From Escherichia coli (GTDB taxonomy: Bacteria; Pseudomonadota; Gammaproteobacteria; Enterobacterales; Enterobacteriaceae), in NCBI RefSeq assembly GCF_044324875.1, contig NZ_CP172185.1: a DNA stretch of 64,000 nucleotides; one strand, given 5' to 3'. Position 1 is the first letter of the stretch, and each line of letters opens with the position of its first letter. This document shows, piece after piece, positions 20,729 to 21,592 of this stretch. The position numbers were made by a program, and so were the translations under genes. Under the pieces are notes generated by a model. That model made no database searches. It had not been told where the DNA came from and saw only the letters and a list, made by a program, of their open reading frames with translations.

Positions 20729-21592
20729 TTAGTCTATTTTTTTTGAAATAATGGCGTTGATCTGTTTATCAGTAAATTGACCTTGGGCTTTGGCTTTATT
20801 TAACCAGAGCAACGCTTCTTCTTTATTTATGCCATTTCCATCAAGCCCCCAGGCATAAATTTGTCCTAAAGTAATTTGTGCAATAGGTAAGTTTTGAGTA
20901 GCAGCTTTCTCAAACCAGTATTTAGCCTGTCGTATATCTTTGGGAACGCCCTGACCATTAAAAAAAAGTGTCCCATAATTATATTGGCCGAGTCGCTGAC
21001 CCTTTTCTGCCGCTATTTTTAAGTGAGGGATAGCTTCAGCATACTTATTCTCTTGAATTCCGATAATCCCTAAGTTTGCATGTGCAATAGGATTGTCCTT
21101 CTGTACTGCTTTCTGAAGCCAATACTTGGCTTTGTTAATGTTTTGGAATTCCTGTGGGCCAAATTGATAAATATTCGCACAGTTTATTTGAGCTTGTTCA
21201 TTCCCTTTTTCTGCCGCTTTCTCATACCAGTATATCGCAATACGATAGTTAGGCCCCGTATTATCATATCCGTAATGATAAATCTGTCCTAAGTAAAATT
21301 CAGCTTCATCATAATTTTGCTTTGCTGCAAGGTTGAGCCAATAAAATGCTTTGTTTATATCCTTCACTGAAGGACTTTCAGATAGACCATTCAGGTATAT
21401 GAGTCCCATCACCGTTTGTGAGGCTTTATCGCCATGTTGAGCCTTGGCAATGATATCCTGCAGTTTATTTCGTGATTCCTTCGTAATATTATTTAATACT
21501 TGCTCGGGAATATCAAAATGTGAAGGGGTATCTTCGGCGCCTATTGCAGTGGCGCTAATTATTAAAATTATTGATGCAATCGTTATTCTCAT
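20729..21592 (-). CDS. Secreted Sel1-like repeat (SLR/TPR-like) protein
   Basis: 287 aa with N-terminal signal peptide MRITIASIILIISATAIGA and repeated ~36 aa units (AxxWxxKAAxQGxxxAQxxLGxxY pattern); markedly AT-rich coding sequence. Confidence 0.8.
   Translation of the reverse strand: MRITIASIILIISATAIGAEDTPSHFDIPEQVLNNITKESRNKLQDIIAKAQHGDKASQTVMGLIYLNGLSESPSVKDINKAFYWLNLAAKQNYDEAEFYLGQIYHYGYDNTGPNYRIAIYWYEKAAEKGNEQAQINCANIYQFGPQEFQNINKAKYWLQKAVQKDNPIAHANLGIIGIQENKYAEAIPHLKIAAEKGQRLGQYNYGTLFFNGQGVPKDIRQAKYWFEKAATQNLPIAQITLGQIYAWGLDGNGINKEEALLWLNKAKAQGQFTDKQINAIISKKID

Follow-up and report, generated by a model that had tools for sequence, protein, structure and literature searches.

An AT-rich Sel1-like repeat gene between pphB and mutS of Escherichia coli belongs to a family resident at this site in three genera

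Background

The described proteins that most resemble the one considered here are exported Sel1-like repeat (SLR) proteins. EsiB of uropathogenic Escherichia coli, which binds secretory immunoglobulin A (IgA), has about 11 repeats, and its gene lies elsewhere in the chromosome, on a pathogenicity island. LpnE and LceB of Legionella and HcpC of Helicobacter are exported proteins thought to work by protein-protein binding, and ExoR, MotX, AlgK and MerG are exported SLR or tetratricopeptide repeat (TPR) proteins, which work in the envelope through the partners they bind. Here we analyse a gene for a predicted exported protein of this kind in a 64,000-nucleotide stretch of E. coli DNA (RefSeq assembly GCF_044324875.1, contig NZ_CP172185.1), the whole of which we call the window. 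The gene, hereafter the SLR gene, encodes 287 amino acids and lies between pphB and mutS. A preliminary description, made from the sequence alone, had presented it as an AT-rich gene for a secreted repeat protein that was probably acquired horizontally and possibly silenced by H-NS. We find that it is under purifying selection, that its family has long resided at this one site in Citrobacter, Pseudocitrobacter and Escherichia, and that it has been exchanged between genera. The protein represents an uncharacterised subfamily of the well-known SLR kind, and a generic annotation is already present in RefSeq, where the identical open reading frame (ORF) of E. coli is entered as WP_001223109.1, 'tetratricopeptide repeat protein'.

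The mutS-rpoS region in which the gene lies is polymorphic in both E. coli and Salmonella (Herbelin 2000; Kotewicz 2002; Ewers 2014). It is a known recombination hotspot, and the window has the 'o454-negative' layout, mutS-...-kpdDCB(ecdDCB)-slyA/marR-rpoS, of O157:H7-like strains (PMC4209514). Mosaic mutS 3' ends and segment swapping, both of which are seen in the window, are the known behaviour of this region. However, an SLR gene between mutS and pphB is not mentioned in the papers on the region that we consulted, and our literature searches (Sel1 with phylogroup D or ST69; mutS-rpoS with Sel1) found no paper describing the gene.

Results

The SLR gene is under purifying selection and its family occupies one site

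The SLR ORF comprises 287 codons with an ATG start and a TAA stop, and there is no longer upstream start. Against its orthologue in Pseudocitrobacter corydidari, the nonsynonymous divergence (dN) is 0.041 and the synonymous divergence (dS) is 0.21, giving a dN/dS of 0.19, and the ratio is about 0.17 against Citrobacter enshiensis, for which dS is near saturation. DNA repeats inside the gene are spaced 108 and 204 nt apart, that is, 36 and 68 codons. Because dN/dS is 0.19 and the internal repeats lie at codon-multiple spacing, this ORF is a real gene under purifying selection and not a chance ORF.

The closest relatives returned by the protein search come from E. coli (100% identity) and P. corydidari (92%), followed by several from Citrobacter and Pseudocitrobacter (52-55%) and then, after a gap, by generic SLR proteins at 36% or less. 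Over the family as a whole, identity to the window protein is 50-56% in Citrobacter spp. and 54% in a second E. coli allele class (allele 2). Every close relative with a readable context, E. coli allele 2 included, follows directly on the 3' side of mutS. In P. corydidari, Citrobacter spp., a Pseudocitrobacter metagenome-assembled genome (MAG) and Citrobacter werkmanii, the SLR gene begins about 105-114 nt past the mutS stop, and the ecdDCB-marR-rpoS block lies beyond it, with the exception of P. corydidari, where other genes replace rpoS after marR. A pattern-based scan of the GTDB species representatives, which may have missed divergent family members, returned only two further loci, those of the Pseudocitrobacter MAG and C. 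werkmanii. The family is narrow, and it is a long-term resident of this site in Citrobacter, Pseudocitrobacter and Escherichia. In C. enshiensis, a 48-aa remnant of the pphB N-terminus is found downstream of the SLR gene (locus L007, 9735-9878), suggesting that an ancestral mutS-SLR-pphB arrangement lost its pphB in Citrobacter. We take mutS-SLR-pphB-ecdDCB-marR-rpoS to be the probable ancestral order.

The cassette has been exchanged between genera by homologous recombination

Sliding identity between the window and P. corydidari is 77-90% over most of mutS and climbs to 94-99.5% over the final ~200 nt of mutS and the 5' part of the SLR gene; it is 88-95% in the remainder of that gene, 83-92% over most of pphB, and 94-98% in ecdD/ecdC. 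In the same comparison dS is 0.79 for mutS, 0.40 for pphB, 0.26 for ecdC and 0.21 for the SLR gene. Since the SLR gene has a dS of 0.21 against 0.79 for mutS, the segment was passed between Escherichia and Pseudocitrobacter long after their split, and the direction may have been either way. The SLR-linked pphB allele is 85-87% identical in nucleotide sequence to pphB of K-12 and O157, and 90-91% identical to that of P. corydidari. The ecdBCD decarboxylase cluster also appears to have moved between genera, as suggested by ecdC dS values well below those of mutS (0.53 against about 1.0 in the comparison of E. coli with C. enshiensis).

A similar discordance is seen within E. coli. Between the window and enteroaggregative E. 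coli (EAEC) strain 042, dS is 0.006 for the SLR gene and 0.075-0.078 for the flanking mutS and ecdC, and the interval ~20300-21810 is 99.5-100% identical in 200-nt segments, with divergent flanks. The last ~160 nt of mutS are mosaic, being 85-89% identical to those of K-12, O157 and 118UI, 99.4% to 042, and 96-99% to P. corydidari; strain 118UI, which carries the SLR gene, has an ordinary E. coli mutS end, while the window and 042 carry the foreign one. The imported tract reaches into the mismatch-repair gene mutS, and its end-point differs between E. coli lineages. A near-invariant SLR gene, divergent flanks and a variable end-point are together the signature of a cassette that would have been introduced recently and be spreading in E. 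coli by homologous recombination in the mutS-rpoS hotspot.

Two features of the locus are those of recombinational allele replacement: a site shared across taxa, and a local dS out of step with that of the flanking genes. At the island borders we found no integrase, insertion sequence (IS) element, tRNA target or flanking direct repeats of the kind that mark a mobile-element island. Instead, the borders are homologous genes (the mutS 3' end and pphB/ecdD) with graded identity, and the direct repeats found around the island are the internal 36-codon periodicity of the SLR gene. The fixed site in three genera, together with the lack of mobile-element marks, rules out a mobile-element insertion; the allele was therefore acquired via allelic replacement by homologous recombination. 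A simple precise deletion or insertion is likewise ruled out, since the 105-bp mutS-pphB spacer of K-12 is not alignable to the window spacer or to the SLR gene, the only alignable parts being the mutS end and the pphB ORF. About 39 nt past the K-12 mutS stop, hairpin included, align to the allele-2 locus, and nothing beyond. Thus, the horizontal acquisition suggested in the preliminary description holds in the sense of a transfer between genera (dS 0.21 against 0.79) and of an uneven distribution in E. coli (181 of 5426 genomes, see below), but not in the sense of a foreign insertion, as the family is resident at this site and its low GC content is stable in the orthologues.

The anomalous composition extends over the SLR gene and pphB

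At 0.378 (37.8%), with 0.323 at third codon positions (GC3), the GC content of the SLR gene is the lowest among the 38 ORFs of at least 250 aa in the window, whose mean is 0.539 +/- 0.036 (z about -4.4), and only 0.3% of the 864-nt segments along the 64 kb have a GC content as low. This calculation against the background bears out the low GC content that had been noticed from the sequence. The further claim that the gene is much more AT-rich than its flanks is correct with respect to mutS (0.561) and ecdC (0.574), but it fails for pphB, which is itself AT-rich (0.422). All 864-nt segments with a GC content below 0.42 start at 20001-21001, so that there is a single low-GC stretch at ~20000-21860. 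Because pphB is also AT-rich and the allele of it that is linked to the SLR gene looks foreign, the anomalous unit is an AT-rich SLR-pphB cassette of ~1.7 kb, and not one gene. Orthologues only 50-56% identical have GC contents of 0.39-0.42 and GC3 of 0.34-0.39, next to mutS genes of 0.56-0.57; low GC is therefore a persistent family trait, a stable property of the SLR family and of pphB and not only a mark of recent arrival. As for H-NS, the mutS>pphB spacer of K-12 is listed with an H-NS site found by systematic evolution of ligands by exponential enrichment (SELEX) (PMC3946193), and the pigA-pphB segment of Salmonella is occupied by H-NS (PMC9335307). By analogy, binding and silencing of the SLR gene by H-NS is plausible.

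The protein is built of six repeats behind a predicted signal peptide

Pfam detects four significant Sel1 (PF08238) matches in the SLR protein, all with E <= 8e-5, as well as a weak Sel1 match at aa 237-271 (E 0.15) and a weak TPR_16 match at aa 162-197. The AlphaFold2 model, built on nine orthologues, has a mean predicted local distance difference test (pLDDT) score of 87 and consists of six helix pairs with N- and C-terminal capping helices (Table 1). The tandem profile matches and the stacked antiparallel helix pairs place the protein among the Sel1-like repeat proteins, and the number of repeats is in agreement with the earlier estimate of about six. Invariant columns across the family amount to 48-56% in repeats 3-4, against 5-17% at the termini. 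Repeat 3 is the most conserved (56%), with the motif QAQxNCAxIYQFGP, repeat 4 (48%) has the motif PIAHANLG, and a further conserved motif is GQYNYxTLF.

The signal peptide that had been called from the sequence is also predicted here, by rule-based inspection (hydrophobicity and the -3/-1 rule) and conservation among orthologues. The N-terminus has an n/h/c layout: M-R is followed by a hydrophobic core of 15-17 residues, and no other part of the protein is strongly hydrophobic (the Kyte-Doolittle maximum over 11 residues is 2.75, at aa 3-13, and reaches only 1.63 elsewhere). Small residues stand at -3/-1 of the candidate cleavage sites ATA-I, AIG-A and IGA-E. Residues 1-24 are unstructured in the model (pLDDT below 50). 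The layout of charged, hydrophobic and small residues is kept in all eight orthologues, in which M1 alone is invariant; that is, the signal-peptide features are kept in nine sequences although only 5% of the columns are invariant there. No orthologue has a lipobox, which rules out a lipoprotein. The N-terminus therefore looks like a signal peptide, through which the protein would be exported and then cleaved.

A Foldseek search against the PDB returned SLR structures for all of the best 15 matches, among them EsiB (4bwr), LceB (8sxq), LpnE (6deh), Oxalobacter SLR proteins and HcpC (1ouv). EsiB (c5321 of E. coli CFT073), a signal-peptide-bearing SLR solenoid from E. coli, as the window protein is predicted to be, is the top match both in phmmer (E 2e-49, summed over several repeat alignments) and in Foldseek (E 3e-10, template modelling score, TM, 0.68). 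However, the 4bwr chain has 467 residues as compared with 287 aa and 6 repeats here, and the alignments, at ~29% identity, run repeat to repeat and are not collinear; orthology is ruled out by the length and the low identity. LpnE, LceB and HcpC form an alpha/alpha SLR superhelix of similar size (TM 0.63-0.71), but they are only 19-30% identical to the SLR protein, come from other organisms and share no context with it. Furthermore, Hcp proteins have a disulfide in each repeat, whereas the SLR protein has a single Cys (C138), which rules out membership of that family. Local NCBIfam similarity was found to MerG, MotX, AlgK and ExoR, with scores (70.8, 50.5, 46.9 and 34.4) far below the respective cutoffs (350, 330, 700 and 450), so that membership of these families is also ruled out; moreover, none of their partner genes lies near the SLR gene. 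A PADLOC scan for defence systems gave only a spurious weak TPR match to PtuA.

Expression signals and the link to pphB

A hairpin directly 3' of the mutS stop, the likely mutS terminator, recurs at this position in every orthologous locus, and its stem sequence differs from one locus to the next. In six aligned upstream regions, the candidate -10 box of the SLR gene lies in a conserved block with the consensus GxGTA(T/A)AAT and reads TATAAT in the E. coli allele-2 and Citrobacter loci, and the Shine-Dalgarno-like site sits within a conserved ATTCAAG(G/A)AA block before the ATG. This conservation points to the SLR gene having its own candidate promoter and ribosome-binding site, each of them weak in the allele of the window. 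The pphB gene begins 24 nt after the SLR stop, and this gap contains neither a terminator nor a promoter-like site, and no obvious Shine-Dalgarno sequence. Such a gap suggests co-transcription, and the SLR gene and pphB are probably co-transcribed in Escherichia and P. corydidari (gap 22-24 nt).

Three states of the mutS-pphB junction in E. coli

The allele class of the window (allele 1) is present in 181 of 5426 complete E. coli genomes, always on the chromosome and always at this site, with an identity of 99.9% in most genomes listed and at least 99% in all. The window's strain is outside this set, in which its closest match over 8.3 kb is 98.6%. Full-length copies are found in 179 of the 181 genomes; the remaining two are disrupted, one by insertion of the IS5-like element ISKpn26 and the other by a 1-nt deletion (NZ_CP080260.1, strain 135; NZ_CP180609.1, PS1Phumofeces1). 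The carriers include EAEC 042, a phylogroup D strain, and EC6868, and others come from water, birds, cattle and poultry. EC6868 is a strain of sequence type 69 (ST69) (PMC10840416).

Allele 2, found by cluster look-up, encodes 284 aa, is 54% identical to allele 1, has a GC content of 0.43 and is found between mutS and pphB, at the site of allele 1, in other E. coli, E. fergusonii and Escherichia sp. (locus L016, 7001-7855; also L017, L018, L021 and L022). An intact allele 2 is present in 12 of the 5426 complete genomes, on both ygb-containing and ygb-lacking backgrounds. The junction can thus be found in three states in E. coli: no SLR gene, allele 1, or allele 2. We also observed at least three deeply diverged allele classes of pphB in E. 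coli, namely one shared by K-12 and O157, one that accompanies SLR allele 1 and one that accompanies allele 2, which are about 79-87% identical to one another in nucleotide sequence and have GC contents of about 0.41-0.44 in all.

Table 1. Coordinates of the SLR gene, its parts and neighbouring features in the window
Feature	Position	Strand	Evidence or remark
SLR gene coding sequence, allele class 1 (287 aa, predicted exported Sel1-like repeat protein)	20729..21592	-	ORF, Pfam, RefSeq, dN/dS
Predicted Sec signal peptide, codons 1-19 (MRITIASIILIISATAIGA), cleavage around aa 16-19	21536..21592	-	hydrophobicity and -3/-1 rule, heuristic
N-terminal capping helix, aa 38-52	21437..21481	-	AlphaFold2 secondary structure
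SLR repeat 1, aa 56-91	21320..21427	-	Pfam Sel1 58-94, E 1.3e-5; helices 56-68, 79-91
SLR repeat 2, aa 95-128	21209..21310	-	Pfam Sel1 96-131, E 2.6e-9; helices 95-107, 116-128
SLR repeat 3, aa 132-163	21104..21199	-	Pfam Sel1 133-166, E 8e-5; AlphaFold2 model
Repeat 4, aa 168-196, shorter, TPR-like	21005..21091	-	weak TPR_16 match; clear helix pair 168-180, 184-196
SLR repeat 5, aa 200-232	20897..20995	-	Pfam Sel1 202-234, E 6.6e-11; AlphaFold2 model
SLR repeat 6, aa 236-269	20786..20887	-	weak Pfam Sel1 237-271, E 0.15; helix pair 236-248, 257-269
C-terminal capping helix, aa 275-283	20744..20770	-	AlphaFold2 model
Weak Shine-Dalgarno-like AAGAAA (AAGGAA in Citrobacter)	21596..21601	-	upstream alignment
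Candidate -10 box TAAAAT, about 35 nt before ATG	21627..21632	-	conserved block in six aligned upstream regions
Poor -35-like TTATCC, 3/6 match	21650-21655	-	
Hairpin directly 3' of mutS stop, likely mutS terminator, weak T-tail	21663..21691	-	terminator scan: 11-bp stem, 7 G-C pairs
AT-rich island: pphB, SLR gene and last ~160 nt of mutS	20050..21860	.	composition, sliding identity
Mosaic 3' end of mutS, last ~160 nt	21697..21858	-	nucleotide identity comparisons
mutS, 853 aa, conserved anchor upstream of every SLR family member found	21697..24258	-	
pphB, 218-aa PPP-family Ser/Thr phosphatase	20048..20704	-	NCBIfam NF007425, 457 bits against cutoff 332; start per RefSeq
ecdB, ecdC, ecdD (hydroxyarylic acid decarboxylase genes)	17739 to about 20006	+	
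MarR/SlyA-like regulator	17185-17625	-	
rpoS	16072-17064	+	

Discussion

The explanation that we favour, with moderate confidence, is that the SLR gene is a functional gene for an exported SLR scaffold, which is bound to its locus and exchanged between genera by recombination. The protein would be exported by the Sec pathway through a cleavable N-terminal signal peptide, leaving a mature protein of ~268 aa (~30 kDa), in which six Sel1-like repeats and their capping helices are predicted to form a right-handed alpha/alpha solenoid. A solenoid of this kind has no catalytic site and would act by binding a protein or peptide on its concave face, and the peak of conservation in the central repeats suggests that the central part of this face, in repeats 3-5, is the likely binding surface. 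Since the protein carries a predicted Sec signal and no secretion system is linked to its gene, its default location would be the periplasm, where it may modulate an envelope protein or serve as its adaptor, on the model of ExoR, MotX, EnhC and MerG. Transcription would start from the gene's own weak promoter downstream of the mutS hairpin, an arrangement that seems to be conserved across genera. In evolutionary terms, the gene would be one allele class of a small, fast-evolving, AT-rich family that holds the first position after mutS. Homologous recombination, with a Pseudocitrobacter-like lineage as the exchange partner, may have brought the window allele into E. coli (or out of it) along with the linked pphB allele and the terminal ~160 nt of mutS, after which the allele would have spread to a minority of E. 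coli lineages.

Several observations weigh against this explanation. The great majority of E. coli, including K-12 and O157:H7, have no SLR gene, and allele 2 is frameshifted into ORFs of 170 aa and 87 aa in many draft genomes (loci L013-L015, 7001-7854), which means that the gene is dispensable and that it may be undergoing decay in some lineages. The promoter is weak (-35 match 3/6) and the Shine-Dalgarno sequence poor, and a consensus promoter scan did not detect the candidate -10 box. Citrobacter carries the SLR gene without pphB, so that a functional link between the two genes is not obligatory. The N-terminal hydrophobic segment could be an uncleaved anchor, and our literature search found no ligand, phenotype or expression data for the gene.

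Among the alternatives, the one that survives best, though we consider it unlikely, is that the protein is released and acts in host interaction or virulence, by analogy with EsiB, the Helicobacter Hcp proteins and Legionella LpnE/EnhC; the preliminary description had already drawn the comparison with Hcp, LpnE and EnhC, which is one of fold. EsiB is the best match in sequence and fold, followed by LpnE, LceB and HcpC, the carriers include the pathogens EAEC 042 and EC6868, and the strong divergence of the allele classes at this locus (50-56% identity) is what diversifying pressure on an exposed protein might produce. However, EsiB is far longer and not an orthologue, the UniRef name 'EsiB' (P0002) being an automatic label; the disulfide pattern of Hcp is absent; and no secretion system is linked to the SLR gene. 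Furthermore, the family occurs at the same housekeeping locus in P. corydidari, C. werkmanii and other Citrobacter, and some of the E. coli carriers are from water, birds, cattle and poultry.

Slightly less probable again is the view that the gene is a silent, decaying passenger of the mutS-rpoS hotspot, kept only by tight repression and recent arrival. This would account for the fact that about 96% of complete E. coli genomes lack the gene and show no scar, for the frameshifts in allele 2 and the two disrupted copies of allele 1, and for the weak promoter and Shine-Dalgarno sequence; the AT-rich DNA found here in K-12 is a target of H-NS, and the near-zero diversity within E. coli would have left little time for decay. 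Nevertheless, dN/dS is 0.17-0.19 at short and long divergences alike, the reading frame, signal peptide, repeats, and promoter and Shine-Dalgarno blocks are kept across three genera at 50-56% identity, and nearly all allele-1 copies (179/181) are intact, all of which argue against decay.

Our favoured explanation of an exported scaffold could be extended to pphB. The PphB/PrpB phosphatase is linked to envelope-stress signalling, and it is conceivable, though improbable in our judgement, that the SLR gene works together with pphB as a functional module of two genes, which moves as one piece and in which a periplasmic SLR adaptor binds or senses a ligand and is coupled to the cytoplasmic PphB/PrpB phosphatase. 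The ligand would then be an envelope component or foreign, that is, from a host, phage or competitor, and the divergent alleles (50-56%, plus the null state) would reflect balancing or diversifying selection on the ligand interface and not hitch-hiking within the recombination hotspot.

Least probable of all is an orphan periplasmic immunity protein against an envelope toxin, by analogy with PA5086-PA5088, which act against a type VI phospholipase: the SLR protein is predicted to be exported, is small, AT-rich in its gene, patchy and highly allelic at a fixed site, and Foldseek does detect PA5087, PA5086 and PA5088 (E 1e-4 to 8e-4), but with a TM of about 0.48 and 13-16% identity they match far less well than generic SLR proteins do, no toxin or type VI secretion system (T6SS) gene adjoins the SLR gene in E. 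coli, PADLOC returned nothing relevant, and the T6SS genes near mutS in C. enshiensis lie on its opposite flank and are missing from the other loci.

Taken alone, the SLR protein is an ordinary-looking member of a large repeat family and changes little. The locus, on the other hand, extends the classic picture of the polymorphic mutS-rpoS region by an SLR-pphB cassette that is multi-allelic and persistently AT-rich, and it provides a clear case of Escherichia-Pseudocitrobacter exchange reaching the mutS 3' end, which bears on the joint movement of mismatch-repair alleles and accessory genes. The cassette could also be used as a lineage marker, since only some E. coli lineages carry it, among them EAEC 042 and the pandemic extraintestinal pathogenic E. 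coli (ExPEC) clone ST69, and it would merit study should an envelope or host-related phenotype come to light.

Other features of the window

An ORF with a TOBE domain is located at 24928-25356 (-) between fhlA and ygbA, and is annotated in 042, 118UI and Ec42; K-12 is without it, ygbA following directly after fhlA. The Rfam scan gave no match near the SLR locus; it found three tRNA genes (RF00005) at the far end of the window, at 63110-63554 (+), which are unrelated to the SLR gene.

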